DNA of 60,060 nt. Origin: an uncultured Candidatus Saccharibacteria bacterium. GTDB taxonomy: Bacteria; Patescibacteriota; Minisyncoccia; Phycocordibacterales; PALSA-1337. A program made the translations under genes and the position numbers. The stretch covers positions 1 through 60,060 of the forward strand of contig CAZHHB010000005.1 in assembly GCA_964532285.1 (NCBI GenBank). Reading direction: 5' to 3'. Shown in pieces: positions 2,482-57,802 of this stretch. A model generated the notes under the pieces. That model saw only the letters and a program-made list of their open reading frames with translations, was not told the origin of the DNA and did no database searches. Within the stretch, counting starts at the first letter, position 1; each line of letters begins with the position of its first letter.

Positions 2482-2633
2482 AGTAAGTCGGGCAAGGTGT
2501 TATTTCTCGCGACGGCGAGTATGCGATGGGTGCGTCAGTCTATGCTTCTCTGAGGCAGACTATGGCTCGCCAACCAATAACTCGGAAGACTAACACGCAG
2601 CTGCGCGAGAAATAACACCTTGCCCGACTTACT
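2482..2633. repeat. Perfect 30-bp inverted repeat flanking a 92-nt structured spacer (nested palindrome A)
   Basis: Left arm agtaagtcgggcaaggtgttatttctcgcg (2482-2511) is the exact reverse complement of 2604-2633. It lies between convergent genes. Confidence 0.9.
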
Positions 2634-3882: not shown

Positions 3883-4048
3883 GTCCGGTAAATAAGTTCT
3901 CGAGACAGCCGAGGACATGTCTGAGCGCAGTAGAAATTGCTTGGTAAAAGGCGAATGTCGTTGGAATTATTCATAATTCCTGAGCCTTTTACCTAGCAAT
4001 TTCACGGAGCGAGTACCGCAGGCTGGCGAGAGGATTTATTTACCGGAC
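3883..4048. repeat. Nested palindrome element B: 114-nt core (3909-4022) inside the locus-specific IR gtccggtaaataa/ttatttaccggac
   Basis: The core is the reverse complement of 54283-54396 with a single mismatch. It has an internal 20-bp stem and an 8-bp stem. Confidence 0.9.
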
Positions 4049-5494
4049 TAGTTTCACGATCTCCTCGATCATACCCCTGAATCCGTGTGCTCCTAGAAAT
4101 ACAATGGCGTCGCCTTTTTTTGCCTGAGAAATCAGATATTTCACAAGGTCCGCGTCATCTTCAATGTATTTGACATTTGGATGAGTCTCGAAGATAATTG
4201 TCGCCAATTCAGCACCATCGATCGGCTGATTGGATTCGTTATCCGCCGTCTTCAATTTCGTCAGCCGTGGGATTATTACGGTATCGGCATCAGCAAAAGC
4301 ATTTTTATATTTGACCAGTGATTCTCTGCTACGACCCCCCATATTTGGTTCAAAGATAGCGATGATGTCACCAGTGTATGTTGATTTCAAAGTTTGTAAT
4401 ACCGCTGAAGCTTTCTCTGGAGAATGGGCGATATCATCAAATACCGTCACATCTCCATCTGACCGTTTCTCCAGGCGACGTTTTAGTCCCTTGAATGAGT
4501 TGATAGCAGCAATTATCTTGTCTGTGGCAACTCCCAACTCGCGTGCCATAGCGAAACACCCAGTGATATTTTCTGATTGATAAAGTCCAAGCATTGGAGA
4601 GTGAACTCTATATTTATTGCCATTATGAGATATGGTTAGCTCCAGACCATCTCTCGTTTGAACAGCATTTTCATAAGAATATTCTGGAGATATATTTCGA
4701 GATTCGAACTCAAGATCCGATCTTGGAAATCTGGCGCGTCCGTATTTGATGACCTTGCCTGCATATGAAGCCAGTGTCTCTTTGACACCTGGATTGTCTA
4801 TACACGCCAATACCAATCCCGTGGGCGATAACATCTCTAGAAGTTTTTTGAAAGCATTGAAATAATCTGATTCGGTGGGATATAAGTCAGCATGATCCCA
4901 CGAGACAGCCGTTAGGAGTAAATGCGTGGGTCTGTAATGAAAGAATTTGGCACGTGGTTCGGTCGGGGAGCTTTTGTATTCATCTCCTTCCAATACACTG
5001 AAATTTCCATTACCGATACGGGCCGAAGAGCCATGAGAAAGAGAAATACCACCGAACATATAAGTCGGATCTAGGAAGGCGTGATCCAGGATGTGAGACA
5101 AAAGGGCGGTGGAAGAAGTCTTGCCCCAAGTCCCAGTACATACGATAGAATTTTCCTTGATGAAGTATTTTCCCAATATCTCTGGATAGGAATAGCGGGG
5201 GATATTTTGTCCCTCGGCATACAGAGTTTCAGGATTTTTTGTGCCAGAAGCAGCACCGACGATCACAAGATCTGGTCTGTCATCGGCAACCATCTTGTCT
5301 GGATGCCAACCGGCATAAAAGTTTATGCCGTGTTTTTCCAATTCCGTGGAAACTGGTGGAAAGAATCCTTTGTCACTACCAGTCACAGTCACACCCTTTT
5401 CTTTGAAGGCAATAGCCACGGCGCTCATAGCTACACCACAAATACCTATTACATGTATACGCTTTGGTAAAGCCGATTCAGGTGAATTATTCAT
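4040..5494 (-). CDS. Mur ligase, MurC/Mpl type (UDP-MurNAc--L-Ala or tripeptide ligase)
   Basis: 484 aa. N-terminus RIHVIGICGVAMSAVA...GSDKGFFPPVSTELEKHGI resembles the Mpl/MurC N-domain. GTWGKTS P-loop. Confidence 0.8.
   Translation of the reverse strand: MNNSPESALPKRIHVIGICGVAMSAVAIAFKEKGVTVTGSDKGFFPPVSTELEKHGINFYAGWHPDKMVADDRPDLVIVGAASGTKNPETLYAEGQNIPRYSYPEILGKYFIKENSIVCTGTWGKTSSTALLSHILDHAFLDPTYMFGGISLSHGSSARIGNGNFSVLEGDEYKSSPTEPRAKFFHYRPTHLLLTAVSWDHADLYPTESDYFNAFKKLLEMLSPTGLVLACIDNPGVKETLASYAGKVIKYGRARFPRSDLEFESRNISPEYSYENAVQTRDGLELTISHNGNKYRVHSPMLGLYQSENITGCFAMARELGVATDKIIAAINSFKGLKRRLEKRSDGDVTVFDDIAHSPEKASAVLQTLKSTYTGDIIAIFEPNMGGRSRESLVKYKNAFADADTVIIPRLTKLKTADNESNQPIDGAELATIIFETHPNVKYIEDDADLVKYLISQAKKGDAIVFLGAHGFRGMIEEIVKLVR
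4711..4726. repeat. Short palindromic unit caagatccgatcttgg inside the Mur ligase CDS
   Basis: Read on the minus strand as ttc cca aga tcg gat ctt gag = FPRSDLE. Confidence 0.85.
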
Positions 5495-10319: not shown

Positions 10320-11516
10320 ATGATGCGATTCTGGAAAGAGTACGGAGCGACGCGAGTGATCGCGATTCTGGTGGTCATTTGTTTGATTATTTTGATCGGT
10401 GTTCTGGTGATATGGTTTTCTCCATATGCAAAGGTGGTATATCCGAATAGCCAGCAAGGGGCAGTTGCTGTCGGAGATACTTCTAGAGATATTGTGTATC
10501 ATCTTCCTACACCCAAACCGTTGAAGGCTGTGTATATGAGTAGTTGGGCGGCCGGTAATGATAAATTCAGGAAACATCTCTTCGATCTCGTAGATACTAC
10601 AGAGATAAATGCTGTGGTAATAGATATCAAAGACTACACTGGTAGGATTAGTTTCCGTGTGGAAGATTCATTTTTGAATGAAATTGGTTCTTCGGAAAAT
10701 CGTATCTCAGATATCAAAGATTTTATTTCGAAATTACATGAAAAGAAAGTGTATGTGATCGGACGCATATCTTGTTTCCAAGACTCATATCTAGTGAAGG
10801 TTCGTCCAGATTGGGCTGTGAAGTCACAACAGGGTGGAGTATGGGCTGATTACAAAGGAGTGAAATGGCTGGATGCTGGAGCAAAGCCTGTGTGGGATTA
10901 TTTGGTCGCTATTGGTAAACAATCTTACGCCTACGGGTTTGACGAATTAAACTTTGATTACATTCGCTATCCTTCTGATGGTGATATGACCGATGTTTTT
11001 TATTCTTGGGATGATGGGTTTACTAGGCAGGAGGTGATGAAATCGTTCTTTATGTATTTGAGAGAAAGTTTTGATGGTACGAATATTCCATTATCCATAG
11101 ATCTCTTCGGTCTGACTACCAGTGCTTCCGGCGATCTTGGTATTGGTCAGAGTCTCATAGACGCTCTGCCTTATTTTGATTATGTCTCTCCAATGGTATA
11201 TCCGTCACATTTTGCTAAGGGATTCCTCGGTTTTCCGAAGCCTGCAACACACCCGTATGAGGTTATTAAAAGCTCTATGGATAGTGCTATATCTAAAGCT
11301 AATATAGCTTCCTCTAGTCCAGAAAAAATTAGACCATGGTTGCAGGCCTTTGATCTGGGGGCTGTTTATACTCCAGCTATGGTGCGCGCGCAAATACAAG
11401 CTACCTATGATTCGGGGCTGGATAGTTGGATGTTGTGGAATGCGGCGAGTGTCTATGATAAAGAAGGATTGATTTCGAAAGAGGCTGTCCAAGGTCCGAC
11501 CTCGGACAAAATATAA
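10320..11516 (+). CDS. Putative glycoside hydrolase, TIM-barrel DUF4015/GHL-type, N-terminal membrane anchor
   Basis: 398 aa. TEINAVVIDIKDYTGRISF and FDELNFDYIRYPSDG resemble the putative glycosyl hydrolase domain family. Confidence 0.55.
   Translation: MMRFWKEYGATRVIAILVVICLIILIGVLVIWFSPYAKVVYPNSQQGAVAVGDTSRDIVYHLPTPKPLKAVYMSSWAAGNDKFRKHLFDLVDTTEINAVVIDIKDYTGRISFRVEDSFLNEIGSSENRISDIKDFISKLHEKKVYVIGRISCFQDSYLVKVRPDWAVKSQQGGVWADYKGVKWLDAGAKPVWDYLVAIGKQSYAYGFDELNFDYIRYPSDGDMTDVFYSWDDGFTRQEVMKSFFMYLRESFDGTNIPLSIDLFGLTTSASGDLGIGQSLIDALPYFDYVSPMVYPSHFAKGFLGFPKPATHPYEVIKSSMDSAISKANIASSSPEKIRPWLQAFDLGAVYTPAMVRAQIQATYDSGLDSWMLWNAASVYDKEGLISKEAVQGPTSDKI
11486..11509. repeat. Short palindromic unit (24-mer tgtccaaggtccgacctcggacaa), identical to 40552-40575
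   Basis: Encodes the last residues (QGPTSDK) of the 10320..11516 CDS. Confidence 0.9.
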
Positions 11517-12007: not shown

Positions 12008-13888
12008 ATGGACGAGAATAGAATTACATATTTCGCAGAGACTGATGCCCGCAATAAGCGAGTGAAATTTGGCATCAAAGCAAAAGATAGAACCCGACAT
12101 GTCTATGTGATCGGGAAGACCGGTATGGGCAAATCAACCATGCTGGAGAACATGGCTGTGCAGGACATCATGAACGGCGAAGGGATGGCTTTCATTGATC
12201 CTCACGGCAAGACTGCAGATCTATTACTTGAATATGTTCCCAAGGAACGCATACGCGATGTTATATACATTGCGCCATTTGATGTTGAACATCCTATTTC
12301 ATTCAATGTTCTGGAAAGTGTAGACAGAGACAAACGTCATCTAGTTTCATCAGGCTTGATGAGTACCTTCAAAAAGATCTGGGAAGATGCTTGGTCAGCG
12401 CGTATGGAATATATTCTGACAAACACTCTTTTGGCTCTTCTGGAATATCCTGGGTCAACTCTCTTGGGTGTCAACAGGATGCTTTCAGACAAAGAGTATA
12501 GGAAGGATGTTGTTGCGCATATTCAGGATCCATCAGTCAAAGCTTTTTGGGTCAAAGAATTTGCGAATTATACCGAGCGTCAAGCGGCCGAGGCTGTGCC
12601 TGCTATTCAGAACAAGGTCGGTCAATTCACCGCCAATCCACTCATCAGGAATATGATTGGTCAGCCAAATTCCTCTTTTGATTTTCGTAAAGCTATGGAT
12701 GAACGCAAGATTATCATTATCAACCTTTCAAAAGGGAAGATCGGCGATGAGAATATGAAACTTCTAGGAGGACTCCTCGTGACGAAGATTTATCTCGCTG
12801 CTATGTCACGAGCTGATGTGCCAGATAGGATCATGAAAGTCCTGCCAAATTTCTATCTGTTTGTAGACGAATTCCAAAATTTCGCGAACGCTTCGTTCGC
12901 AGACATACTCTCAGAAGCCAGAAAATATAAACTCAATCTAACCATCGCCCACCAATACATAGAACAGATGGATGAGATCGTTCGTCCGGCAGTATTTGGC
13001 AACGTCGGCACAATGATCGCTTTCCGTGTGGGGGCAACGGACGCCGAGGAATTGGAAAAAGAATTTGCCCCTGTCTTTGTTTTGGAAGATTTGGTCAATC
13101 TGGGCTTTGCTCAAATATATCTGAAATTGATGATTGATGGTTTGTCATCTTCGCCATTTTCTGCGACGACATTGCCGCCTATTGCTCATCCAGACACATC
13201 TTATGTCAAAGAGATTATAGATGTCTCGCGAGAACAATATGCCAAACCAAGAGCTGAGGTTGAAGTGGATATTATCAAATTCCATGAACCGACAGTGAAG
13301 AAGGTAGAAGTGATTAAGGGGCAGGTTGCGGAAGTCCCCCAGAGACGTACGCCGTCGTCGCTTGCTAGCGACGCGGCTCGTTCTCAGCCGCCTGCGCGGC
13401 TTCCGAAAGCCGTCTCTGAAGGACTTCCGCAACCTGCCCCAACCTCAACTTCTTCCGTTCCCGTACCACCGAAAATTCAATCGGCAACAACAAACCCAGT
13501 AACACCTTCAAAGGCCTCACCGGTGCCAGTTCAACCTCCACCGACACCTTCCAAGCCCATATCAGCACCTGTACAAACCAAGCCTATAATTTCCAATACA
13601 AATAATGTTTCTATTCCACTAGCGACACTTTCACCTAGACCCCCTTCACAGAGGACTGATCACAAGGTCCAGTCATCAGGAAATGTTAACGATTTACGAA
13701 ATGCTTTGCAGGCAGTCTTGAAGAAATCCGCACCAACATCTACAACACCTTCATTACCATCGTCTACTCCGGGTGTTTCGAATACTACCAAATTCACCCA
13801 AAAGTCTTCCGGAACAGCGTCATCTGATAGTAAACCCGCGAATGAAGTACCTAGAGATGTTCTTGAGAAGGTATTGAAAGTTGACTGA
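12008..13888 (+). CDS. TraD/TraG/VirD4-family P-loop ATPase (T4SS coupling-protein-like) with a Pro/Ser/Thr-rich C-terminal tail
   Basis: 626 aa. Walker A VIGKTGMGKST, Walker B FYLFVDEFQNF, LTIAHQY. The last ~190 aa are low-complexity P/S/T-rich. Confidence 0.7.
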   Translation: MDENRITYFAETDARNKRVKFGIKAKDRTRHVYVIGKTGMGKSTMLENMAVQDIMNGEGMAFIDPHGKTADLLLEYVPKERIRDVIYIAPFDVEHPISFNVLESVDRDKRHLVSSGLMSTFKKIWEDAWSARMEYILTNTLLALLEYPGSTLLGVNRMLSDKEYRKDVVAHIQDPSVKAFWVKEFANYTERQAAEAVPAIQNKVGQFTANPLIRNMIGQPNSSFDFRKAMDERKIIIINLSKGKIGDENMKLLGGLLVTKIYLAAMSRADVPDRIMKVLPNFYLFVDEFQNFANASFADILSEARKYKLNLTIAHQYIEQMDEIVRPAVFGNVGTMIAFRVGATDAEELEKEFAPVFVLEDLVNLGFAQIYLKLMIDGLSSSPFSATTLPPIAHPDTSYVKEIIDVSREQYAKPRAEVEVDIIKFHEPTVKKVEVIKGQVAEVPQRRTPSSLASDAARSQPPARLPKAVSEGLPQPAPTSTSSVPVPPKIQSATTNPVTPSKASPVPVQPPPTPSKPISAPVQTKPIISNTNNVSIPLATLSPRPPSQRTDHKVQSSGNVNDLRNALQAVLKKSAPTSTTPSLPSSTPGVSNTTKFTQKSSGTASSDSKPANEVPRDVLEKVLKVD

Positions 13889-20571: not shown

Positions 20572-20640
20572 AAGTTCGGTGAATGTGTGTCCCCCTCGGA
20601 ACGGAACATGTTCCTCGGAAGACACACATTCACCGAACTT
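20572..20640. repeat. Perfect 20-bp inverted repeat around a 29-nt palindromic centre (nested palindrome G)
   Basis: aagttcggtgaatgtgtgtc (20572-20591) pairs with gacacacattcaccgaactt (20621-20640). The centre contains ggaacatgttcc and two cctcgg motifs. Confidence 0.9.
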
Positions 20641-31429: not shown

Positions 31430-32284
31430 ATGAAAAATATCCTGAAGAAAACCCTGCCACCTTTTATTTGGAATAATGCCAGAGATACTTATTATGGCTT
31501 TTCTCATATCCTATGTAGGATTGGTCCGCAGACGAAAACTCGCAATTATTGTGGATTCAGATTGTATTACAATTGCGGCAATTCCATAATTGACAGACTG
31601 AAGTTTGAACCCGTCTTCGAAAAAGAGATGTGTGAGATGATCGTCTTTGATTTGAATAAAAGTAAGACACCAAAGATGTTAGATATCGGTGCGAATATCG
31701 GTTTTATCAGCCTTTATGTTGTTTCAGAAGTTTCTGCAATCAAGATTTATGCTTTTGAGCCGGGGTTGAAACAGGCGGGGTATTTTAAGAAAACTATAGA
31801 AGCCAATGCCTTGAGCGAGCGTGTGGTCTTGAATACTTTTGCCCTCTCAGATTCAAATGGCACCCAGACCTTCTATAGTCATCCTAGACGCGATATGTCG
31901 AAAGATGGTCTAAAAGATACAGGAAGGGGAGAAAGGACGGTTGTAACAGAGGTAAAGACCATGACGTTGGATTCTTGGTGGAAAGGGGTGGGTATGCCGA
32001 ATATTGATGTTGTGAAGATTGATACAGAGGGGGCGGAGTTATTGATCTTGCGTTGTGCAAAGGAATTCCTGGCGAAAGTGAAACCGATTATTTATCTGGA
32101 GATAGCGCCGAGTAATCTGAAAGCATACCCGTACAAGGTCTCAGATATTTTGAAATATTTAGGCGAGGCTGGTTACAGATTGGTAACGTTGTCAGGTGAA
32201 TTGGTTACAGCAGATAATTTAAATGAATTGTTGGTTGTTAATGAGACTTTCCGTGCCATTTCAGATGGTCAGGTCGCAAAGTGA
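31430..32284 (+). CDS. FkbM-family methyltransferase
   Basis: MLDIGANIGFISLY, AFEP, VVKIDTEGAE. Confidence 0.75.
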   Translation: MKNILKKTLPPFIWNNARDTYYGFSHILCRIGPQTKTRNYCGFRLYYNCGNSIIDRLKFEPVFEKEMCEMIVFDLNKSKTPKMLDIGANIGFISLYVVSEVSAIKIYAFEPGLKQAGYFKKTIEANALSERVVLNTFALSDSNGTQTFYSHPRRDMSKDGLKDTGRGERTVVTEVKTMTLDSWWKGVGMPNIDVVKIDTEGAELLILRCAKEFLAKVKPIIYLEIAPSNLKAYPYKVSDILKYLGEAGYRLVTLSGELVTADNLNELLVVNETFRAISDGQVAK

Positions 32285-32432
32285 TTTTTATGAGACCTGC
32301 GGGACTCGCTATCGTTAAATTGCAAGGTTTTTGTGCTCATGGGCATGTAAGGTTCCGAGCACAAAAACCTAGCAATTTATACTCTGCTCAGACAGGTCCT
32401 CGGTCTCATAAAAATCACCTTGCGACCTGACC
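32267..32432. repeat. Nested palindrome element C: core 32296-32403 inside a 31-bp IR (1 mismatch) that includes the last 5 codons and stop of both flanking genes
   Basis: ggtcaggtcgcaaagtgatttttatgagacc pairs with ggtctcataaaaatcaccttgcgacctgacc. The core termini cctgcgg.actcgct / ctgctcagacaggtcctcgg are shared with elements B and D. Confidence 0.9.
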
Positions 32433-35852: not shown

Positions 35853-36017
35853 GAACGGAAGTATACACCATTGTCTGTATTTGTGAATAATAAAAAGCCC
35901 TATCAAGAATTTGACAGAGTTTGTGTGGTCGTGTTAACCAAATATTTTCGTAGGGTGCAACATCCCATTCCGAACCCACGATCGGCCCTGCTCGTACAAC
36001 GGAACACCTCGCAGGGC

Positions 36018-36143
36018 CGTCTCTTCTCGCGCTGGTGTCATCAATATGCGGAGTTAATCTTCAACAGCGCTCCGAAAGGGGTGTCGTCATGGGATGTTAC
36101 ACCCTACTGCAATCATTATATACTCGCTCAGACAGGTCCTCGG
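36018..36143. repeat. Partial or degenerate copy of the nested-palindrome core (element E)
   Basis: cctactgcaatcattatatactcgctcagacaggtcctcgg resembles the element C 3' end cctagcaatttatactctgctcagacaggtcctcgg. No flanking IR was found. Confidence 0.6.
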
Positions 36144-37084: not shown

Positions 37085-37099
37085 ATGTACATTATAGTA

Positions 37100-37141
37100 C
37101 CACAAGGTCCGACCTAGGAGTTCCTAGGTCGGACCTTGTGG
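37100..37141. repeat. 42-nt near-perfect palindrome made of two short palindromic units
   Basis: ccacaaggtccgacctagga-gt-tcctaggtcggaccttgtgg (20-bp arms). It lies between the divergent GDPD and IMPase-family promoters. Confidence 0.9.
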
Positions 37142-37143
37142 TA

Positions 37144-49388: not shown

Positions 49389-51959
49389 ATGGCATTTTTC
49401 AGCAAAATATTCAGTTCATCCAAGACGAGCAATCCAAAGAAGTTTGAGCCGATTGTGGTGGAGATAAATAAACTGGAAAACAAAATCCAGGCTCTTTCTG
49501 ATGCAGAACTTCGAGCGAAGACAGCAGAGTTTAAGAGTAAACTGAGTACTTCTACCTCTAGGTCGGACCTAGAGGTGTTGATGAATGAAATCCTCCCTGA
49601 AGCTTTCGCTGTAGTTCGCGAAGCCTCTCGCCGTACTCTCGGTCAGCGTCATTTTGATGTTCAACTTATCGGGGGGATGATCTTGAATTCAGGATCAATC
49701 GCCGAGATGAGGACTGGTGAAGGTAAAACTTTGGTGGCAACACTGCCAGCTTATTTGAATGCACTTACCGGTAATGGTGTACATATTGTCACGGTCAACG
49801 ATTATCTATCACGACGCGATGCTGTGTGGATGGGACAGATCTACGATTTTCTCGGACTTACAGTCGGAGTGATCAACCATGAATCATCTTTTATATATGA
49901 TGCGGAACATAAAAGTAAAGAAACAGTAGAAAGTGATGGTGAAGACAAACTAGACAAAGAACGCGATGATCTGGGTGCCTTCAAAGTCGTTCATGAATTC
50001 TTAAGACCAGTTACTAGACACGAAGCCTACATGGCCGATATCACTTACGGCACGAACAATGAATTCGGTTTTGATTACCTCCGAGACAATCTAGAGTATA
50101 GTCCAGACCGTCTGCGTCAGAGGGAATTCAACTATGCCATAGTAGACGAGATAGACTCTATTTTGATCGATGAAGCGCGTACGCCACTCATCATCTCCGC
50201 GCCGACTCGTGACGCCGAAAGTACTTACAAACAGTTTGCTGCGCTCGTAGGTTCATTCAAAGAAATAGAAGACTATATAGTAGAAGAAAAACACAAAAGT
50301 ATATCTCTGACGCAGGATGGTATAACTAAAGCTGAAAAGGCTCTGGGCATAGAGAATATCTATACAGACAAGGGCATCAAGTCGGTTCATCATCTCGAGA
50401 CGGCCATCAAAGCCCGAGCCTTGTATCACAAAGACAAAGAATATGTAGTAAAAGAAAATCAGATTGTAATAGTAGATGAATTCACTGGGAGATTGCAGCC
50501 TGGCCGTAGATGGTCAGATGGTCTGCATCAAGCCATTGAAGCCAAAGAAGGTGTGAGTATTCAGCAAGAATCTAGAACTTATGCTTCCATTACATTCCAA
50601 AACTTCTTCAGAATGTACCCGAAGCTTTCCGGTATGACTGGTACGGCCGTGACTTCATCTGAGGAATTCCACAAAGTCTATGGCCTGGAAGTTTATAGTG
50701 TACCGACCAATGTTCCAACGGTGAGGAAAGATCAAAATGATCAGATATTCAGAACAGAGGTTGGTAAATTCAAAGCTATTGCAAGAAAGGTCAAAGAATT
50801 GCACAGCAAAGGTCAGCCGGTTCTGATCGGCACGGTCTCTATTGAGAGGAATGAAGTCTTGTCACAATTCTTGAAAGCAGAAGGTATCCCGCATGAGATA
50901 TTAAATGCAAAAAATCACGAGAGAGAAGGAGAGATCATCGCTCAGGCTGGTAGGGTTGGTGCGGTTACTATCGCCACCAACATGGCGGGTCGCGGTGTGG
51001 ATATCAAACTTGGCGGCAATCCAAATACTCCAGAATCACACGATGAAGTCAATAAAGCTGGGGGACTTTTTGTCCTCGGCACTGAACGCCATGAAGCTCG
51101 TCGTATAGACGACCAACTACGAGGTCGTTCTGGCCGTCAGGGTGATCCGGGTGAGACACAGTTCTTTGTCTCTCTAGAAGATACTTTGATGCGTGTTTTT
51201 GCTTCGGATACTTTGAAGTCAATGATGGTTAGGTTGAATGTGCCAGAAGATGAAGCTATAGAGCATAAGTTTATTTCCAAAGCTTTGGAATCTGCACAAG
51301 AGAAGATTGAAGGTTTCAACTTCGATTCCCGCAAACATGTTTTGGAATTTGATGATGTCATAAATCATCAGCGCGGTAGTATTTACGGTAGACGCAGAAA
51401 ACTTTTGCTTGGGACGGTAGAGGATGTGGAAGAGGAGTTCAGGATTATCATAGAAGCTGCCGCTTTTGAAACCGATATATTAAAGGTCGTAGAAAATAAA
51501 ATAAATGAATTTGGTCGTGAGTCATTCCTCAATGCTGTTAGAGTGATTCTCCTGCAGACAATTGATATGTATTGGGTGGAACATCTGGAGGTTATGGATT
51601 ATACGCGTTCCAGCGTCAATCTGCGCGCTTACGGTCAACGAGATCCTTTGGTTGAATACAAAAAGGAGGGGCTGAGGCTTTTCAAAGAGATGCAGGGTGT
51701 TATGAGTGCGCAGGTGATCAAAATCATTCCACATATAGTCCCGATGGTAAACGGGGAACCTGTTTCCAAGAAGATTGCAGGTGACGCTGCTGATTTGAGG
51801 GAAGTTCATGAAAATGCTCAGATTATCGGTGCCGGTGATGGTTCCGCGAATAATTCAAAGTCAGTCAGTGATTCCAAGTCCGTTGGTCGCAACGATCCAT
51901 GTTGGTGTGGTAGTGGGAAGAAGTATAAGAAGTGTCATGGGCAGTCAAAGATCGTGTAA
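49389..51959 (+). CDS. secA: Preprotein translocase ATPase SecA
   Basis: AEMRTGEGKTLVATLPAYLNAL, IVDEIDSILIDEARTPLIIS, C-terminal CWCGSGKKYKKCHG. Confidence 0.95.
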   Translation: MAFFSKIFSSSKTSNPKKFEPIVVEINKLENKIQALSDAELRAKTAEFKSKLSTSTSRSDLEVLMNEILPEAFAVVREASRRTLGQRHFDVQLIGGMILNSGSIAEMRTGEGKTLVATLPAYLNALTGNGVHIVTVNDYLSRRDAVWMGQIYDFLGLTVGVINHESSFIYDAEHKSKETVESDGEDKLDKERDDLGAFKVVHEFLRPVTRHEAYMADITYGTNNEFGFDYLRDNLEYSPDRLRQREFNYAIVDEIDSILIDEARTPLIISAPTRDAESTYKQFAALVGSFKEIEDYIVEEKHKSISLTQDGITKAEKALGIENIYTDKGIKSVHHLETAIKARALYHKDKEYVVKENQIVIVDEFTGRLQPGRRWSDGLHQAIEAKEGVSIQQESRTYASITFQNFFRMYPKLSGMTGTAVTSSEEFHKVYGLEVYSVPTNVPTVRKDQNDQIFRTEVGKFKAIARKVKELHSKGQPVLIGTVSIERNEVLSQFLKAEGIPHEILNAKNHEREGEIIAQAGRVGAVTIATNMAGRGVDIKLGGNPNTPESHDEVNKAGGLFVLGTERHEARRIDDQLRGRSGRQGDPGETQFFVSLEDTLMRVFASDTLKSMMVRLNVPEDEAIEHKFISKALESAQEKIEGFNFDSRKHVLEFDDVINHQRGSIYGRRRKLLLGTVEDVEEEFRIIIEAAAFETDILKVVENKINEFGRESFLNAVRVILLQTIDMYWVEHLEVMDYTRSSVNLRAYGQRDPLVEYKKEGLRLFKEMQGVMSAQVIKIIPHIVPMVNGEPVSKKIAGDAADLREVHENAQIIGAGDGSANNSKSVSDSKSVGRNDPCWCGSGKKYKKCHGQSKIV
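49554..49576. repeat. 23-nt perfect palindrome (short palindromic unit) inside secA
   Basis: acctctaggtc-g-gacctagaggt, translated as TSRSDLEV. Confidence 0.9.
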
Positions 51960-52113
51960 CCCCTCACATTGTTTCCTCACTCACTCGCACTCCACTCATC
52001 ACATATCGGAATTTTCACAAATGATGTCTTCCAAGGCTTCAGCCATCATTTGGAAAATTCAACGATATGTTCTTCGCGGATTATGCTCGCTCGTGGATAA
52101 ACAATGTGAGGGG
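51960..52113. repeat. Nested palindrome element F: 15-bp outer IR and 17-bp inner hairpin
   Basis: Outer IR cccctcacattgttt / aaacaatgtgagggg; inner hairpin gaattttcacaaatgatg / catcatttggaaaattc. The 5' motif cctcactcactcgcactcc resembles cctgcggtactcgctcc of element D. Confidence 0.85.
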
Positions 52114-52163
52114 GTACACGATCTCAGATTCACAAAACTCTGTAGATGTGGTAGAGTAAACTT

Positions 52164-53225
52164 GTGAAATTAAATATTACGACATACTTCTTCTTCGCCT
52201 TACTTCTGTGTGCCGCAGTCGCCGCAGTGGTTATTTTCCTGCCATTCATAACACCACTATTACTTGCCGCAGCTGCAGCTGTCATTTCATATCCTCTATA
52301 CAAATTTATATTGCGTTCGCTCGGCCATGGTGGTACTAGAAAGAATATTGCAGCTCTCGCCACCACAATCTTCATTCTCGTCGTTGTCCTAATCCCACTT
52401 TTCTTCCTTATCGCAAAGATTTACTCAGAAATACAATCTCTGTATCTATTACTTATAGACGAATCAGGTCGTTCTCAAGTCATCTCAGGTCTCAACTCCC
52501 TATCACAGTCTCTGTCGCATACTCTGTTTGATGCTTTCCCCGCGTATTCATTCGACTCTCTCAATGTGACCGAATATATGAAGGGGACACTTGTATGGGT
52601 GTTCAGTAACTTGGACACGGTCTTCTCGGGCCTAGCCAAGGTTGCCGCCTACGTCTTCGTATTCTTGATGGCTACTTTCTATTTCCTACGTGATGGAGCA
52701 GAGATCAAGAGGAAGTTTGTCTCTTGGAGTCCTCTTTTGGATACTCACGATGAATTCATAACGGAAACTTTCAGACGAGCTATCAAATCAGTCTTCGTCG
52801 GGACTATCACGGTCAGTGTTGTGCAGGGGATTATGACAGGTCTTGGATTCTTGGTATTCGGTATTCCTGCACCGGCAGTCTGGGGAAGTGTAGCTGCTGT
52901 GGCATCATTGATTCCTGGAATCGGAACGAGTCTAGTCATTATACCGGGTATAGTTTACCTGTTTTTCATCGGTCAGAATATTTTTGCTATCGGACTCCTC
53001 ATTTGGGGGATTTTCGCTGTCGGGCTTATAGACAATTTCTTGGGTCCGTATATGGTCAATCGCGGCATCAACGTTCATCCGTTTCTCATCCTCATCTCTG
53101 TCCTTGGTGGATTGGTAACCTTCGGTATCATAGGTTTTATCCTAGGGCCGATCATTCTATCTCTGTTATTCGCTCTAATGGATATTTACAAGACATCATT
53201 CAGTGGTGATCAGAAATTGGCATAA
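52164..53225 (+). CDS. AI-2E family transporter (PerM/UPF0118)
   Basis: 353 aa, polytopic. YFLRDG, GLIDNFLGPYMV. GTG start preceded by tagagtaaactt. Confidence 0.7.
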   Translation: MKLNITTYFFFALLLCAAVAAVVIFLPFITPLLLAAAAAVISYPLYKFILRSLGHGGTRKNIAALATTIFILVVVLIPLFFLIAKIYSEIQSLYLLLIDESGRSQVISGLNSLSQSLSHTLFDAFPAYSFDSLNVTEYMKGTLVWVFSNLDTVFSGLAKVAAYVFVFLMATFYFLRDGAEIKRKFVSWSPLLDTHDEFITETFRRAIKSVFVGTITVSVVQGIMTGLGFLVFGIPAPAVWGSVAAVASLIPGIGTSLVIIPGIVYLFFIGQNIFAIGLLIWGIFAVGLIDNFLGPYMVNRGINVHPFLILISVLGGLVTFGIIGFILGPIILSLLFALMDIYKTSFSGDQKLA

Positions 53226-53277
53226 TAATATTTATCGTCCGGTTGAGATTCTTCAGACGGACAACTAAAACACAAAT

Positions 53278-54249
53278 ATGGCTTTTATTGACGAAATACA
53301 ATTCCATGCCAAAGCTGGCAACGGTGGGAAAGGCGTAGTGCGCTGGCGACATGAGCGCGGCAAAGAATTTGCCGGTGCTGCGGGTGGCAATGGCGGCAAG
53401 GGCGGCGATGTCTATGTCCGCGCCGTGCGAGATATAAATATTCTTTCACGCCACAAAGCCGTGAAGATCTTTTCTGCCAGTAATGGGCGGGACGGGCAAA
53501 ATCTGAGCATGCAGGGAGGAAGCGGTGAAGATCGCACGATAGATTTGCCAATAGGTTCTGTGGTTACAAATCTGAATTCAAAAAGAGTTGTGGAGCTCAT
53601 AGAAGACGGACAGGTGTCAAAGATTTTACACGGAGGCCGTGGCGGTCTGGGTAACGAATATTTCAAAGCCTCCACCAATGTTCGTCCAGAACAATCTACT
53701 CCAGGAATGGATGGGGAAGAAGCAGGCTTCGAAGTTGAACTAGATCTGATCGCTGATGCAGGACTGATAGGTTTGCCGAATGCCGGCAAGTCTAGTTTAT
53801 TGAATGCACTTACGAATGCAGAAGCCAAAGTTGGTAATTACGCCTTTACGACTCTGGATCCTAACCTCGGAGCTTTGGCTGGCGGATACATCCTGGCTGA
53901 TCTGCCGGGGTTGATAGATGGTGCGGCAGAAGGCAAGGGACTCGGTTACAAATTCCTCCGCCATGTGAAGCGCACAAAGATGCTCCTGCATTTAGTTTCT
54001 CTGGAAAATGAAGATGTCGAAGCGGCTTATACATCCGTGCGTCATGAATTGGAAAAATATGGCAATGGTTTGGGTGAGAAGAAAGAAACTATTATCTTGA
54101 CGAAAACTGACATGGTGACATCTGCAATTGTAAAGAAAGCACGAAAAGTTCTAGGTAAACATAATAAAGATATTTTGGAAGTTACTATACTAGATGATTC
54201 TTCAGTGAAGGTATTGGGGAAAGAATTGGTTGGGAAGTTAAGGGGGTAG
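53278..54249 (+). CDS. obg: GTPase Obg/CgtA
   Basis: AKAGNGGKGVVRWRHE, GGNGGKGGDVY, GLPNAGKSSLLNA, DLPGLIDGA. Confidence 0.9.
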   Translation: MAFIDEIQFHAKAGNGGKGVVRWRHERGKEFAGAAGGNGGKGGDVYVRAVRDINILSRHKAVKIFSASNGRDGQNLSMQGGSGEDRTIDLPIGSVVTNLNSKRVVELIEDGQVSKILHGGRGGLGNEYFKASTNVRPEQSTPGMDGEEAGFEVELDLIADAGLIGLPNAGKSSLLNALTNAEAKVGNYAFTTLDPNLGALAGGYILADLPGLIDGAAEGKGLGYKFLRHVKRTKMLLHLVSLENEDVEAAYTSVRHELEKYGNGLGEKKETIILTKTDMVTSAIVKKARKVLGKHNKDILEVTILDDSSVKVLGKELVGKLRG

Positions 54250-54253
54250 GTGA

Positions 54254-54424
54254 AGAGCCCAACAACTAACTCGCAAAGCTCACCTGCGGTACTCGCTCCG
54301 TGAAATTGCTAGGTAAAAGGCTCAGGAATTATGAATAATTCCAACGACATTCGCCTTTTACCAAGCAATTTCTACTGCGCTCAAACATGTCCTCGGTGAG
54401 CCTTGCGATTAGTTGTTGGGCTCT
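54254..54424. repeat. Nested palindrome element D: 114-nt core (54283-54396) inside a ~31-bp locus-specific IR
   Basis: The core matches the reverse complement of 3909-4022 at 113/114 positions. Arms are agagcccaacaactaactcgcaaagctcacc / ggtgagccttgcgattagttgttgggctct. Confidence 0.9.
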
Positions 54425-54429
54425 AGAGA

Positions 54430-55884
54430 TTACCCCAACTTCTCTATGAGGAGTTTCTTCACTACTTCTGGGTTGGCGGAGCCTTTTGTAGCTTTCATAG
54501 CTTGACCAATAAGATACTGAAGAGAGGTGGTCTTGCCGGATTTGTAGTCGTTTACCACCGAGGAATTATCAGAGATGATCTTCTCAATGATTGGTAGAAT
54601 GTCCGCGGAATCACTCTTTTGAATAAGTCCGTGCTTTTTGGCAAGTTCATTTGGTGGAGTATCTTTCTCGGTTATTAGTAATGTCAGGAGGTCTTTGGCT
54701 CCGCGAGATGATACTGTGCCGTCATGAACCATTGTTATGAGTTCAGCGAAAGATTCGGGCGAGATATCTTTCAATGACGCTCCGATTTCTGACATTGTGG
54801 TGTTCGGTTTTTTCTTCAACATTCCCAGGTAATCACTAAGAAGATAGTTGATCGTCAATTTTATTTTCTTGGTGTCTGCAGGATATGATGAAATTATTGA
54901 TTCGAAGTATTCAGCGATTTTGATATTCTCAATAAATACAGCTACCTCTTTGTCGGTCATACCGAAATCTTTTTTGTAGCGAGCTTCCTTGTTCCATGGA
55001 AGTTCCGGAATTTCTTTTTTTAATGTAGCGACGGAAAATTCTTTTATCTCCGACAATTTTAATTTTGGAATATCTGGATCAGGAAAATACCTGTAGTCGT
55101 GAGAACTTTCTTTGCTGCGCTGAGAATATGTTTCTCCTTTTGTATCATCCCAGCCGCGAGTTTCTTGGGCGACTGTATGACCATCATCGAGTAGGGAAGA
55201 CTGGCGAGTAACTTCATATTCGATAGCGCGTTCAACAGAACGAAATGAATTTAAATTTTTCACTTCAGTTTTTGTGCCGAATTTTCCGGCGGCAGTATCT
55301 TTCTCTGAAGCTATAGAAATATTTGCTTCAATGCGCATCTCACCCTTTTCCATATTGGCCAAACCGGCTCCGAGATAACGGAGGAGGAGCTGTAGTGATG
55401 AAGCGAACTTCACAGCCGAGGATGCATCATGTATGACAGGCTTCGTGACTAATTCCATGAGTGGGACACCGGAACGATTGAAGTTGACCAGACTCTTGTG
55501 ATGCGTGTCATGAGTGGACTGAGCGGTGTCTTCTTCTAGGTGGATACGCTCGATCTCTACGTCTGATAATTTTCCACCGGATACGAGAGGGTACTTGTAC
55601 TGACTGATTTGATAGCCCTTCGGTATGTCTGGATAGAAATAATTCTTACGATCCCATTCTGTGAAGTCGGCGAGAGTTCCACCTACAGCGACACCGACTT
55701 TGAGTACATGCTTGATAGCTTCCATATTCAGAACAGGTAGTGTCCCAGGATGTCCCAAACAGATGGGGCAGATATTTACGTTCGGTTTTTCTTCGTCGGG
55801 ATTATTTCTGCAGGCACAAAACATTTTTGACGTAGTCTTCAATTCAGCGTGGATCTCCAAACCAATAGTGGGTATGTAACTCAT
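54430..55884 (-). CDS. gatB: Asp/Glu-tRNA amidotransferase subunit B
   Basis: MSYIPTIGLEIHAELKT, CPICLGHPGTLP, NRSGVPLMELV, C-terminal GatB/YqeY domain. Confidence 0.9.
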   Translation of the reverse strand: MSYIPTIGLEIHAELKTTSKMFCACRNNPDEEKPNVNICPICLGHPGTLPVLNMEAIKHVLKVGVAVGGTLADFTEWDRKNYFYPDIPKGYQISQYKYPLVSGGKLSDVEIERIHLEEDTAQSTHDTHHKSLVNFNRSGVPLMELVTKPVIHDASSAVKFASSLQLLLRYLGAGLANMEKGEMRIEANISIASEKDTAAGKFGTKTEVKNLNSFRSVERAIEYEVTRQSSLLDDGHTVAQETRGWDDTKGETYSQRSKESSHDYRYFPDPDIPKLKLSEIKEFSVATLKKEIPELPWNKEARYKKDFGMTDKEVAVFIENIKIAEYFESIISSYPADTKKIKLTINYLLSDYLGMLKKKPNTTMSEIGASLKDISPESFAELITMVHDGTVSSRGAKDLLTLLITEKDTPPNELAKKHGLIQKSDSADILPIIEKIISDNSSVVNDYKSGKTTSLQYLIGQAMKATKGSANPEVVKKLLIEKLG

Positions 55885-56533: not shown

Positions 56534-57802
56534 ATGAAAGATATCTTTATTTTTGAAGGTAAAAAATACATCTCGGCTAGGCGAGCATCCGAAATCTCGG
56601 ACTATTCTTCTGATTACATTGGCCAACTTTGCCGCTCTGGAAAGCTTGATTGTCGCATGGAGGGAAGATCGTGGTTTGTAACAGAAGAGTCTCTCAATCT
56701 ACACAAGACCAATGTTTTGGAAGATGAAGTTTACAGGAACCGTATCGAAAATCTTCGTGGGAAGAAACCGAAAGACACAACAGAAGAGAAAGTTAAAATT
56801 TCCGAAAATAAAAAATCCGAGTCTGAATCAGTAGAACAGACTACTCCATTCATCTCTACAAAACGGGCATCCGAAATCTCGAACTATTCTCCAGATTACA
56901 TCGGTCAACTTTGTCGTTCCGAAAAGCTTGATTGTCGTATGGTGGGACGGTCATGGTTTGTAACAGAAGAATCTCTCAATCTATACAAGGTCAATGTTTT
57001 GCACGATGAAGTTTACAGGAACCGCATCGAAAATCTTCGCGGGAAAAAATCAAAAGATATAACAGGAGAGGAAATCGGCGCTCAGGTTCCCGATCCCCAA
57101 CCTTCTCTCTCGGAACAATTCATCTCATCTGAAATGAGATCTTTCTTGGCAAGCAAGATGACATATGAACACGCTGACGATCCTCTGCTTCCAGCATTGA
57201 ATAAATATGCAGACAAGACAACAGAGGGGGCTTTGTCTGATTCGACAGAGATTGTGGGGGGGGCGATGATTCCGATTAAAACTCCCTACACCAATCTTGC
57301 TCGCTCCATCATTTTGAAAAGAGCATTGAGACCCGCTGTGATGATAGCCATGTTCCTGGTTGTCTTCGGCGGAACGACGATTGTATTCAATAAGATCAAA
57401 AATAGTAGCAATATATCGGTGGCCAAAATCTCCGAACTCAATGCGACTATTTTAGACGCTTTCAAGTCAACCAGTTCTTTTTTGCAGAGAGAGTATGATG
57501 GCTTGCTGGCTCTATTCAAATACAGAAGTGAGTTGGCTTTGAACACAACCGATGATGGCGCAGAAATATCGGACGTCGAAACCCCTACAAATAATCCTTC
57601 TCAAGGAATAGCGATAGTGCCTTCGACGGGACTTGCCGCGGATGATGAGGCGGCAAAACAGAAGATTCAAGATTCTTTCTCTGATCAGATAGAAGTTCAT
57701 CCTGACAATAGCGGTACATCAGGTATCATCACCCCTGTCTTCCGCACCACGAAGGGTAATGATTTCGTATACGTTCTCGTTCCGATCAATGAGCAAAAAT
57801 AA
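56534..57802 (+). CDS. Membrane-anchored protein with two tandem excisionase-like HTH modules
   Basis: 422 aa. The module ISxxRASEISxYSxDYIGQLCRSxKLDCRMxGRSWFVTEESLNL occurs twice, followed by a TM helix (AVMIAMFLVVFGGTTIVF) and a C-terminal extracytoplasmic part. Confidence 0.6.
   Translation: MKDIFIFEGKKYISARRASEISDYSSDYIGQLCRSGKLDCRMEGRSWFVTEESLNLHKTNVLEDEVYRNRIENLRGKKPKDTTEEKVKISENKKSESESVEQTTPFISTKRASEISNYSPDYIGQLCRSEKLDCRMVGRSWFVTEESLNLYKVNVLHDEVYRNRIENLRGKKSKDITGEEIGAQVPDPQPSLSEQFISSEMRSFLASKMTYEHADDPLLPALNKYADKTTEGALSDSTEIVGGAMIPIKTPYTNLARSIILKRALRPAVMIAMFLVVFGGTTIVFNKIKNSSNISVAKISELNATILDAFKSTSSFLQREYDGLLALFKYRSELALNTTDDGAEISDVETPTNNPSQGIAIVPSTGLAADDEAAKQKIQDSFSDQIEVHPDNSGTSGIITPVFRTTKGNDFVYVLVPINEQK
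56569..57070 (+). repeat. Intragenic tandem duplication: two ~220-bp units offset by 282 bp (94 codons)
   Basis: 56569-56788 and 56851-57070 align base for base with scattered substitutions. Confidence 0.9.

Follow-up and report, generated by a model that had tools for sequence, protein, structure and literature searches.

We lean toward the view that the 114-nt core of a long hairpin in the 60,060-nt stretch of DNA analysed here (the window) is an example of a structured nucleic-acid module that is widespread, absent from Rfam 15, and active in the form of a folded single strand. The module would consist of two helices, free in sequence, that a near-invariant, asymmetric junction connects. 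The first-pass annotation had presented a conserved core with variable arms as the reverse of an ordinary MITE; deep conservation, however, is confined to the first 18 and the last 14 nt of the core, that is, to the motifs M1 (CCGAGGACNUGUYUGAGC) and M2 (GCGAGUNCCGCAGG). Both motifs are near-invariant across at least 51 instances, M2 even though it lay outside the search pattern. The combination of a conserved core and variable arms therefore marks a conserved junction flanked by free helices and not an inverted MITE; this arrangement is typical of small ribozymes and structured RNAs.

Hairpin copies in the window

The core at 3909–4022 on the forward strand (copy A; Table 1) had been described as the reverse complement of 54283–54396 (copy B) at 113 of 114 positions, and our comparison agrees; the sole difference (G/A) is C/U on the sense strand and is located at the Y position of M1. 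The description of the fold is also largely correct. The element at 3883–4048 folds on itself (−77.2 kcal/mol, z = −9.3; 0 of 200 shuffles are as good), its 20-nt inner stem (GAAATTGCTTGGTAAAAGGC / GCCTTTTACCTAGCAATTTC) contains one mismatch, and the cores of copies A and B are nested in locus-specific inverted-repeat arms; however, the apical stem was given as 8 bp and is 7 bp in the fold (GGAAUUA/UAAUUCC, with a 4-nt loop). The inner-stem 20-mer has 4 matches within the window compared with 0.02 expected. The arms of copy A (3883–3910 and 4021–4048) are 28 nt in length and 82% complementary, and, as had been noted, the right arm supplies the GTC CGG TAA (Val-Arg-stop) of the Mur ligase ORF at 4040–5494. 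The flanks of copy B are the end of obg at 54249 and the stop codon of gatB at 54430. The arms of copies A and B are statistically unrelated (∼60% of shuffles reach an equal score).

Table 1. Positions of the M1/M2 copies and their parts in the window.
Feature	Position	Strand	Description
Copy A, 5′ arm	3883..3908	+	Outer helix, locus-specific; starts with 9 nt (GTCCGGTAA) that mirror the Mur ligase gene end
Copy A, M1	3909..3926	+	CCGAGGACATGTCTGAGC
Copy A, inner hairpin	3927..4008	+	82 nt; 20-bp stem and 7-bp apical stem; identical in copy B
Copy A, M2	4009..4022	+	GCGAGTACCGCAGG
Copy A, 3′ arm	4023..4048	+	Last 9 nt are the two final codons and stop of the minus-strand Mur ligase gene
Copy B	54254..54424	− (sense strand)	Fills the gap between convergent obg and gatB
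Copy B, 5′ arm	54397..54424	−	
Copy B, M1	54379..54396	−	
Copy B, inner hairpin	54297..54378	−	
Copy B, M2	54283..54296	−	
Copy B, 3′ arm	54254..54282	−	
Copy C	32267..32432	− (sense strand)	M1 at 32386–32403, M2 at 32296–32309; different inner hairpin with compensatory changes
Copy D	36126..36143	−	Exact M1 alone, then a long minus-strand hairpin at 35950–36107
Probable deletion derivative	20572..20640	−	20-bp perfect arms around CCGAGGaACAUGUU..GUUCCG-AGG

Five more diverged relatives had also been proposed, with mixed outcomes. The stretch at 32267–32432 is a true third copy in which M1 and M2 are exact and the core is 69% identical. The arms of copy C (29–31 nt) extend into two convergent FkbM methyltransferase genes and take in the final 18 nt of each, with the result that the FkbM proteins end in GQVAK-stop and GQVAR-stop; the arms of A and C are no more alike than shuffled sequence. 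The stretch at 36018–36143 contains M1, but no M2 was found there, so copy D is truncated or aberrant; a 5S-like stretch beside it (35950–35985) was dropped when Rfam gave no match. The stretch at 20572–20640 is a probable internal-deletion derivative in which the outer portions of M1 and M2 remain and both the GAGC...GCGA kernel and the inner hairpin are missing. A covariance model matches 20584–20628 (E = 0.0066); this model, built from a rearranged pseudo-alignment, is weak on inner hairpins of 76–82 nt and gives low scores to the true copies in the window, so it was used for this match only. The other two proposed relatives (2482–2633 and 51949–52124) share a similar architecture, but M1 and M2 are both absent from them at the numbers of mismatches allowed in the search, and they do not belong to this family.

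The same genome carries a second core family (family 2) in which, as in the M1/M2 family, a shared core occurs with different arms. One copy (E2) is located in a 16S rRNA helix, within an insertion of 145 nt that stands in place of the apical loop, and at this position is necessarily transcribed; its outer helix contains five G·U pairs on the rRNA-sense strand. The family-2 core has no meaningful match in a plasmid collection. An Rfam check of the window and 18 other loci identified no M1/M2 copies inside rRNA genes. Separately, a hairpin at 13318–13440 is located, in frame, inside a VirD4-like ORF; neither this hairpin nor the one in 16S rRNA is an M1/M2 copy, and both come from other core families.

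Sequence, pairing and permutation of the junction

The strands of the junction are CCGAGGAC-NUGUYU-GAGC (5′) and GCGA-GUNCC-GCAGG (3′). The pairing that we propose comprises C1-G14′, C2-G13′, G3-C11′, G5/G6 with C9′/C8′, A7-U6′, C8-G5′, a six-base bulge, tandem G·A/A·G, G17-C2′, and C18-G1′. The outer helix (the arms) and the inner helix vary freely, with compensatory changes: their positions are paired in 77% of cells, compared with 27–44% when the partner columns are slid, and the covariation score is 0.312, compared with 0.098 for shuffled and 0.06–0.11 for slid alignments (0 of 500 shuffles reach 0.312). Changes on both sides are found in 12 of 17 outer-helix pairs and in 21 of 27 pairs overall; within the motif, C1-G14′, C2-G13′, and G17-C2′ have compensatory changes. 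Helices with compensatory changes are, therefore, present across diverged sequences, as expected for a structured RNA. The first-pass annotation had staked its proposal on covariation among the copies, and covariation does support the structure.

The junction occurs in two circular permutations, that is, with the outer helix open in one and the inner helix open in the other; because it is circularly permuted, no terminal-inverted-repeat transposon model fits. Minimal forms are ∼36 nt and carry a GNA or GNRA loop in their sense strand alone, and the outer helix of the minimal copies is just 7–10 bp. The evidence for strand asymmetry is modest: outside the motif, G·U pairs number 93 on the sense strand and 62 on the antisense strand (13 vs 6 by genome, p = 0.02); in the ungapped alignment, the comparison of G·U with A·C (46 to 37) is not significant. 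The sense strand has the better fold for 41 of 48 instances and for all three copies in the window, an energy difference that is confounded by the motif itself.

The module has no counterpart in Rfam 15 or in the phage collections that we searched. Rfam 15 gave no match to the window at the gathering threshold; cmscan at E ≤ 10 (the element) or E ≤ 1 (minimal and variant copies), as well as Rfam at permissive E-values for 18 other loci, returned only spurious miRNA-hairpin matches; no tRNA or tmRNA was found. Motif strings retrieved only chance primer matches from the full-text literature, one Breaker-lab motif paper contained no match, and topical literature searches located no description of the motif. 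A phage origin was rejected (no match among viral contigs or GenBank phages), as was a sequencing-adapter or MDA artefact, because the family has compensated variation, coherent gene contexts across 34–70% GC, and representatives in finished Ralstonia genomes. Several other comparisons were also abandoned: the sarcin-ricin/bulged-G motif, because its key A is usually U in our motif; the hammerhead, because its three-way junction is absent; and resemblances to hairpin-ribozyme loop A, SRP domain IV, the Ro-binding site of Y RNA, the T-loop, attC sites, and retron a1/a2.

Distribution and genomic setting

A scan for the 18-mer using one genome per species identified at least 112 loci, for which, by our arithmetic, ∼70 chance matches are expected; with M2 within 200 nt at ≤2 mismatches, at least 47 loci (51 instances) are obtained compared with ∼0.3 expected. 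The motif is found in at least 20 genomes from at least nine phyla, including Bacillota, Myxococcota, Patescibacteria, Spirochaetota, Planctomycetota, and Omnitrophota, and ∼30 bases of the junction are invariant in genomes that range from 34% to ∼70% GC. Among the matches listed, the genomes with an exact M1 are all metagenome-assembled. Ralstonia, the carriers of which include finished genomes, has a shorter, multicopy variant on megaplasmids in which covarying helices enclose the kernel CUGUCUGAGC-GNA-GCGAGUUU alone. The element is patchily distributed and is often located at contig ends.

The arms behave differently in different lineages. In Lachnospiraceae RGIG8364, the element is multicopy and the arm variation is compensated. 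In the MJ lineage, identical arms are found at two loci with a differing apex; given that the arms travel with the element in that lineage, free-helix arms alone do not explain the difference between the arms of copies A and B. The whole core of copy A is 73% identical to that of a copy in another organism (L115), and the apparent likeness of its arms to those in the lineage of L114 and L115 is not significant. The element is absent from the 14–21 kb stretches of relatives that we compared. An orthologous empty site was not found: the closest GatB proteins are 74–75% identical, and the gene order downstream of gatB in these relatives differs and lacks the element, so the boundaries of the insertion are not definable. 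Exact-protein look-ups identified matches from the same genome only.

The reported siting between convergent genes mostly holds (convergent, 8–9; tandem-antisense, 6–7; tandem-sense, 4). The element has no preferred orientation relative to its flanking genes, a result that speaks against a cis-acting element in mRNA and that would fit a role for single-stranded DNA equally well. No gene is linked to the element: the 127 ORFs near 33 loci fall into 150 Pfam families with three members or fewer each, and no transposase recurs among these ORFs. The neighbors of the copies in the window are a LysW-like gene, the Mur ligase gene, obg, gatB, and the FkbM genes. The window had been said to contain no transposase; this is true of the best 25 of the 84 families listed.

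Proposed function, alternatives and comparison with known systems

The conservation, structure, permutation, and distribution of the module and its lack of a linked gene are direct observations. Judged from sequence, the module is probably an RNA that is carried on selfish hairpin repeats; we infer that it acts as RNA rather than as single-stranded DNA, and its activity and mode of copying are proposed on the same footing. The arms would be the outer helix of the module, constrained for pairing only, and for this reason would differ between loci. The invariance of ∼30 bases, together with the freedom of the helices and the existence of circular permutations, may reflect an intrinsic activity, e.g., self-processing, or, alternatively, recognition by a very slowly evolving cellular partner. 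The module would have spread with small, selfish palindromic repeats, which build up between genes, mostly at gene 3′ ends; the A/B twin would have arisen when the segment spanning M1, the inner hairpin, and M2 was recently copied into a different hairpin context, either by insertion at a hairpin apex or through M1- and M2-anchored recombination or template switching. Because the boundary of A/B identity coincides with the edges of the invariant motifs, transposition of a 114-nt unit is not proven; recombination or template switching anchored in the motifs fits this boundary equally well. As a more speculative proposal, and one that we advance tentatively, the kernel YUGUCU-GA-GC...GC-GA-GUU could provide the catalytic or recognition core for a small functional RNA of a new class. 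This RNA would be a self-cleaving/self-processing ribozyme or a module read by a universal cellular machine and, in either case, would tolerate circular permutation and have spread on hairpin repeats through at least nine bacterial phyla.

The element might instead be a REPIN- or IS200-like non-autonomous mobile element, the junction being the folded single-stranded DNA site that is recognized or cleaved by a trans-acting HUH/Y1-type or other structure-specific enzyme and the hairpin serving for mobilization only. We regard this explanation as possible but doubtful. It is consistent with the multicopy, patchy distribution, the frequent position at contig ends, the lack of orientation bias relative to transcription, and the lack of a linked gene; also, GNA triloops and tandem sheared G·A pairs are very stable in DNA. 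The compensated arm variation likewise fits, having been reported for REPINs (PMC3116915). However, no candidate enzyme was found among 25 of the 84 families in the window or beside the 33 loci, the GTAG or CGTC tag is absent, and ∼30 invariant bases amid randomized helices are unusual for a protein-DNA recognition site. REP families and RAYT transposases co-evolve and are lineage-specific, and we know of no precedent for circular permutation of transposon ends.

That the elements are spacer hairpins like intervening sequences, with arms that are RNase III substrates, excised or tolerated as insertions, and a junction that is a processing determinant, is improbable. The arms (26–33 bp) are long enough for RNase III, and a family-2 element is located within an insertion in a 16S rRNA apical loop; CPR rRNA genes contain short, ORF-less, uncharacterized insertions at stem-loop tips that have been likened to RNase III-cleaved intervening sequences (PMC11270868). 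Yet no M1/M2 copy was found inside an rRNA gene, the outer helices of the minimal copies measure only 7–10 bp, a conserved 30-nt junction is unnecessary for RNase III, and a long flanking duplex on the same side is lacking in the permuted forms. Enrichment between convergent genes and a position directly past stop codons would suit ordinary bidirectional terminators or mRNA-stabilizing hairpins that share a core only as the result of recent horizontal spread of one repeat; this is very unlikely, because no U-tract follows the 3′ arm on the sense strand of copies A, B, and C, as an intrinsic terminator would have, copies also occur between tandem genes in either orientation, and recent spread cannot yield randomized helices around an invariant junction or permuted forms. 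Finally, a simple local duplication confined to this contig, suggested by the presence of only two near-identical copies in the window and by the possibility, raised in the first-pass annotation, that the core occurs at those two loci and in no relative, is refuted: the window contains a third copy, which is full, and a fourth, which is partial; a 73%-identical core is found in another organism; and the family of the core is widely distributed.

Should the junction prove to be an active RNA, it would represent a novel class of small ribozyme or RNA-recognition element found outside the usual comparative pipelines, and the material for experiments is at hand, i.e., the 36-nt minimal form, the natural permuted forms, and the variant in cultivable, genetically tractable Ralstonia. 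If it is a mobilization signal in single-stranded DNA, it would be the first bacterial palindromic repeat with a recognition motif conserved across phyla, implying an equally widespread enzyme. Either reading would account for a class of long hairpins that lie between the genes of reduced CPR genomes, overwrite the C-termini encoded by adjacent genes, and break assemblies, and would tie these hairpins to the short uncharacterized insertions at the tips of CPR rRNA helices.

Among known systems, REPs and REPINs resemble the M1/M2 element in being long, imperfect, multicopy intergenic hairpins (∼100–180 nt) with compensated arm mutations and no gene inside. REPs are palindromes of 20–40 nt, one end of which bears a conserved GTAG or CGTC tag (PMC3733652). 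No such tag is found at the helix foot in the motif or the arms, and no RAYT/Y1 gene was seen in 70 kb of this genome or in 8-kb loci of others; also, the element is not two inverted REPs, and its junction is invariant across phyla whereas REP sequences are lineage-specific. MITEs (Correia, ERIC, and RUP) are likewise small palindromic repeats that are intergenic and non-coding and that may extend into the ends of genes; however, the termini of copies A, B, and C are not conserved, the conserved part is internal and asymmetric, and permuted forms exist. No direct repeat that would represent a target-site duplication was found outside the arms of A, B, C, or the Lachnospiraceae copies; the ends of all these elements are approximate. 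Rickettsia palindromic elements, similar to the hairpins in this genome, land intergenically, in RNA genes, and in frame in coding genes, but their families are confined to Rickettsia and relatives and have no sequence in common with M1/M2. With rRNA intervening sequences and CPR rRNA insertions, E2 shares an extended hairpin in place of an apical loop and a sporadic distribution; to our knowledge, intervening sequences have no pan-phylum junction motif. Retron ncRNAs differ in that their locus-specific a1/a2 inverted repeats enclose msr-msd beside a reverse transcriptase gene; no reverse transcriptase was found among the 127 neighbors or beside the copies in the window.

The kink-turn, in which a 3-nt bulge precedes tandem sheared G·A, A·G pairs and the −1b/−1n pair is adjacent, has the same strand topology as the junction, that is, helix, bulge, and GA on one strand and GA followed by helix on the other; however, the bulge in M1/M2 is 6 nt instead of 3, the flanking helix is itself conserved in sequence, and the Ralstonia variant has extra unpaired bases (GUU) on the other strand. 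We know of no L7Ae-type partner across the phyla that carry the motif. In cmscan searches, the element did not match the consensus of the hammerhead, twister, twister-sister, pistol, hatchet, HDV, or hairpin ribozymes, and its two-helix junction lacks the three-way junction or pseudoknot-forming loops of the hammerhead and twister. The hammerhead (types I–III) and twister (types P1, P3, and P5), which are small self-cleaving ribozymes, nevertheless resemble the M1/M2 module in having a short, near-invariant junction or loop in distant phyla, helices that are free in sequence and length with compensatory changes, natural circular permutation, and many intergenic copies, often within repeats, that have no consistent gene association.

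Hairpin copies in the window

Copy A folds as a single long hairpin (−77.2 kcal/mol, z-score −9.3; none of 200 shuffles is as stable). As the first-pass annotation had it, its 114-nt core is the reverse complement of the core of copy B with a single difference. The 20-nt inner stem has four matches in the window (two arms in each of two copies; 0.02 in shuffled sequence); the apical stem, which had been given as 8 bp, comprises 7 bp and a 4-nt loop in the predicted fold. The arms that enclose the two cores (28 nt and 82% complementary in A; in B about 28 nt, in which one pair is G.U and one G is bulged) are indeed unrelated, that is, no more similar than shuffled sequences are to each other, and the right arm of copy A does end in the 9 nt that form the Val-Arg-stop codons of the minus-strand Mur ligase gene.

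Among the more diverged relatives that had been proposed, one proves to be a third full copy (copy C). What A, B and C have in common is limited to 18 nt at the start of the core (M1, CCGAGGACNUGUYUGAGC), 14 nt at its end (M2, GCGAGUNCCGCAGG) and the base of the inner stem; the distal inner stem of C differs from that of A and B by compensatory changes. M1 occurs four times in the window (0.12 expected) and M2 three times (0.48 expected). The proposed relative at 36018-36143 contains M1 with no M2 partner; the hairpin at 20572-20640, the covariance model's strongest hit within the window (E = 0.0066), keeps CCGAGGaACAUGU and GUUCCG-AGG and has lost everything between them, and its sequence makes it a likely internal-deletion relic. 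The two remaining candidates (2482-2633 and 51949-52124) have unrelated cores that lack both M1 and M2 within the mismatches allowed in the search. The arms of copy C overwrite the ends of both convergent FkbM methyltransferase genes, so the two proteins end with the same type of pentapeptide (GQVAK and GQVAR, each followed by the stop).

The window contains further hairpins and repeats. The hairpin at 51949-52124 overlaps the final codons and the stop of secA and is much more stable on the minus strand (−91.9 vs −77.0 kcal/mol). The hairpin at 13318-13440 is also more stable on the minus strand (−97.2 vs −88.8 kcal/mol); it lies in frame (41 codons) within ORF 12008-13888, which encodes a VirD4/TraG-like coupling protein, at a position C-terminal to the ATPase domain, and it resembles the Rickettsia palindromic elements found inside genes. 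Short palindromes (CCAAGATCCGATCTTGG / AAGGTCCGACCTTGG) are scattered across the window, some within ORFs; one member of this family, at 37098-37143, is a perfect 22-bp palindrome, and the 24-mers at 11486 and 40552 are identical. The two copies of the direct repeat (84% identity, 282-nt spacing) are probably an internal protein repeat.

Positions of the hairpins, repeats and related features (L122, second assembly of the same genome; L124 and L125, Ralstonia megaplasmids)
Feature	Sequence	Position	Description
Copy A	window	3883-4048 (+)	core 3909-4022
Copy B	window	54254-54424 (−)	core 54283-54396
Copy C	window	32267-32432 (−)	FkbM gene ends at 32267-32284 and 32415-32432, in the complementary arms
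M1 alone	window	36126-36143 (−)	
Long hairpin	window	2482-2633	30-nt perfect arms
Long hairpin	window	51949-52124	26-nt arms, 96% complementarity
GC-rich hairpin	window	13318-13440	123 nt; 30-nt arms, 93% complementarity
Short palindromes	window	4710, 11486, 16956, 23541, 23841, 23862, 37098-37143, 40552, 48938	
Direct repeat	window	56566-57073	226 nt, in ORF 56534-57802
E1, right arm	window; L122	1-33; 9926-9958	33-nt perfect arms, 55-nt core
E1, partner arm	L122	9838-9870	
16S rRNA gene	L122	3035-4697	
16S insertion	L122	4190-4334	145 nt
E2	L122	4209-4313	inner 105 nt of the insertion; 25-nt arms, 55-nt core
Ralstonia variant hairpins	L125	1239-1364, 1448-1572	about 125 nt
Ralstonia variant hairpin	L124	1448-1572	about 125 nt

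The M1/M2 junction and its distribution

We scanned one genome per bacterial and archaeal species (596 Gb) with the reverse complement of M1 and found at least 112 loci. By our arithmetic, an 18-mer with four-fold degeneracy is expected to have about 70 chance matches in 596 Gb, so many single M1 matches, especially those in coding regions, are noise. M2, which was not part of the query, is located within 200 nt with at most two mismatches at no fewer than 47 loci (51 instances including those in the window), where about 0.3 loci are expected by chance. The carriers among the matches listed include Lachnospiraceae, Oscillospiraceae, Eubacteriales, Clostridiales, Coriobacteriia, Myxococcota (four genomes), Patescibacteria (two genomes besides that of the window), Spirochaetota, Planctomycetota, Omnitrophota, Eisenbacteria, one Pseudomonadota genome and unclassified bins, with GC contents from 34% to about 70%. 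Several genomes have many copies: in Lachnospiraceae RGIG8364, 13 are spread over 10 contigs, and they frequently lie at contig ends. UBA5187, a relative identified by its GatB match, has a minimal copy. At five loci (L038, L039 and L056 in bacterium 8_bin.22, and L022 and L060 in Eubacteriales) M1 is exact and its partner is divergent, e.g., GCGCAGUUAUCUCCCGCAGG or CGAGUCGUACCGG; therefore, further variant classes of the junction exist.

In every instance the motif halves lie between two helices. The standard arrangement has an open outer helix (the arms) and an inner helix capped by a loop, which may be as small as a GNA triloop or GNRA tetraloop or as large as an 83-nt hairpin; the permuted arrangement runs M2, hairpin, M1, and here the flanks make up the inner helix. 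When all 46 distinct instances are rearranged into one register, standard pairs occupy 77% of the cells (27-44% with the partner columns slid), the covariation score is 0.312 (0.098 when shuffled, with none of 500 shuffles reaching 0.312, and 0.06-0.11 when slid), and 12 of the 17 outer-helix pairs have changes on both sides. Compensatory changes also occur within the motif, at C1-G14' (to U-A and A-U), C2-G13' and G17-C2'. We propose that C1-G14' and C2-G13' are followed by a bulged A12' and G3-C11'; A4 then lies opposite G10', G5-C9' and G6-C8' are followed by the bulged, variable N7', and A7-U6' and C8-G5' lead to a six-base bulge (N-U-G-U-Y-U), the tandem G15.A4' / A16.G3' and, finally, G17-C2' and C18-G1'. 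We infer the non-canonical pairs, and within the invariant part there is no sequence variation on which covariation could act. The topology is similar to that of a kink-turn, with a bulge of double the length, and we do not class the junction as one.

When plasmids were searched by BLAST with the minimal motif, a shorter variant, helix-CUGUCUGAGC-GNA-GCGAGUUU-helix, appeared in 126 Ralstonia megaplasmid records, with 2-7 occurrences per record, and its flanking helix covaries among copies; the most widely shared kernel is thus YUGUCU-GA-GC ... GC-GA-GUU. In the annotation table no feature underlies the variant hairpins in L124 and L125. One Ralstonia locus, between cbiE and a magnesium chelatase gene, has two copies in head-to-head orientation with about 85 nt between them.

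Possible exchange of modules and a second hairpin family

The identity of copies A and B begins and ends precisely at the outer edges of M1 and M2. The 32 bases of M1 and M2 are invariant everywhere, so the informative identity is that of the 82-nt inner hairpin, and a boundary at invariant edges is expected under more than one mechanism. In a lineage whose core is 73% identical to that of A (L033/L114/L115), two different loci have identical 24-nt arms, and at the apex one copy has a 51-nt hairpin where the other has a 3-nt loop. In Lachnospiraceae the proximal arms are conserved and the distal ~25 nt differ, always with compensation; one distal variant is found at two loci. An 8-bp box (UCGCAAGG/CUUUGCGA), including its G.U pair, recurs in the arms of B and of C at unequal distances from the core; only 5-8 of 2000 shuffles match this. 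These sequence comparisons suggest that modules are swapped at several levels of the nested hairpin; insertion at hairpin apices, loss of apical hairpins by deletion, and recombination or template switching at M1 and M2, whose invariant sequence would serve as the anchor, are candidate mechanisms. No relative is close enough to supply an empty site: the best identity of the window's GatB in the protein collection is 74-75%, and its nearest named matches are Parcubacteria, Paceibacterota or Patescibacteria. The window belongs to a Paceibacteria-like member of the Patescibacteria. In relatives (L119-L121, GatB 75% identical) the gene order is gatB, EamA, a 92-aa gene, obg, AI-2E transporter, NUDIX, TrpR, secA; at 51949-54424 in the window, gatB adjoins obg and AI-2E adjoins secA, and copy B and the hairpin at 51949-52124 occupy exactly the two spots of the missing genes.

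Upstream of the window, the second assembly of this genome adds 9.9 kb, and the two are identical where they overlap. It completes E1, a hairpin between pyruvate kinase and radC within which the window's contig starts; apparently, the assembly broke there. The core of E2 is ~85% identical to that of E1 (by eye), and the arms are unrelated. E2 lies inside the 16S rRNA gene, in an insertion that replaces the 5-nt apical loop of a hairpin at model positions about 1150-1169, which we take to be helix 40; as part of this gene, E2 is necessarily transcribed. The outer part of the insertion has five G.U wobbles on the rRNA-sense strand, and the core of E2 (family 2) contains the hairpin UGC-GA-GCGC-GACG-GCGC-GA-GCA, likewise with tandem GA. 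A common core with different arms is thus seen in at least two families of this genome. For CPR bacteria, short insertions that lack ORFs and sit at stem-loop tips of rRNA have been compiled and likened to intervening sequences cleaved by RNase III, with no conserved motif described (PMC11270868).

Strand, gene context and interpretation

The CCGAGG...CCGCAGG strand is the more stable of the two when folded, both in the three window copies and in 41 of 48 instances, a comparison confounded by the motif's own contribution; the predicted helices outside the motif include 93 G.U pairs when read on this strand, compared with 62 on its complement (excess in 13 vs 6 genomes, p = 0.02), and GNA and GNRA closing loops occur on this strand only. 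These asymmetries suggest that the module acts as one particular strand in folded form. DNA, too, accommodates stable G.U-type wobbles and GNA loops, and the strand may therefore be RNA or single-stranded DNA. The 127 ORFs within 2.5 kb of the motif at 33 loci represent 150 Pfam families, each at three loci or fewer, with no recurrent transposase, integrase or reverse transcriptase; in the window the neighbors are housekeeping genes (a LysW-like gene and the Mur ligase; obg and gatB; the two FkbM methyltransferases). The earlier statement that the window lacks a transposase holds for the 25 families listed, of 84, for its 54 ORFs.

The conserved core with variable arms noted in the first-pass annotation stands; its framing as an inverted MITE does not. 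Local duplication, which it had already doubted, is refuted by the occurrence of M1/M2 far beyond this genome. The observation leads to a widespread motif for which neither Rfam 15, at all thresholds tried, nor phage collections gave a match, and of which we found no description in the literature searched. The main rival to the reading that we prefer is a single-stranded-DNA mobilization signal for a putative structure-specific enzyme, which is possible but rather unlikely; the multicopy, patchy distribution and the absence of orientation bias speak for it. Relative to flanking genes, 8-9 copies are convergent, 6-7 tandem-antisense, four tandem-sense and one divergent, which argues against a cis-acting element of the neighboring mRNAs; no U-tract follows hairpins A, B or C, and we regard a plain terminator as highly improbable. 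A spacer processed by RNase III is improbable as well.

By analogy with known RNAs, the M1/M2 module would on balance be a folded single strand, probably RNA, that is carried by selfish hairpins and has either an activity of its own or a highly conserved partner in the cell. Transposon ends and REP sequences co-evolve with their enzymes and are lineage-specific; the module is unlike them in being invariant across phyla. In its ~30 bases invariant across phyla, randomized but compensated helices, natural circular permutation, 36-nt minimal forms and lack of gene linkage, the module is like the hammerhead and twister ribozymes, and this set of features therefore favors an intrinsic activity or such a partner.
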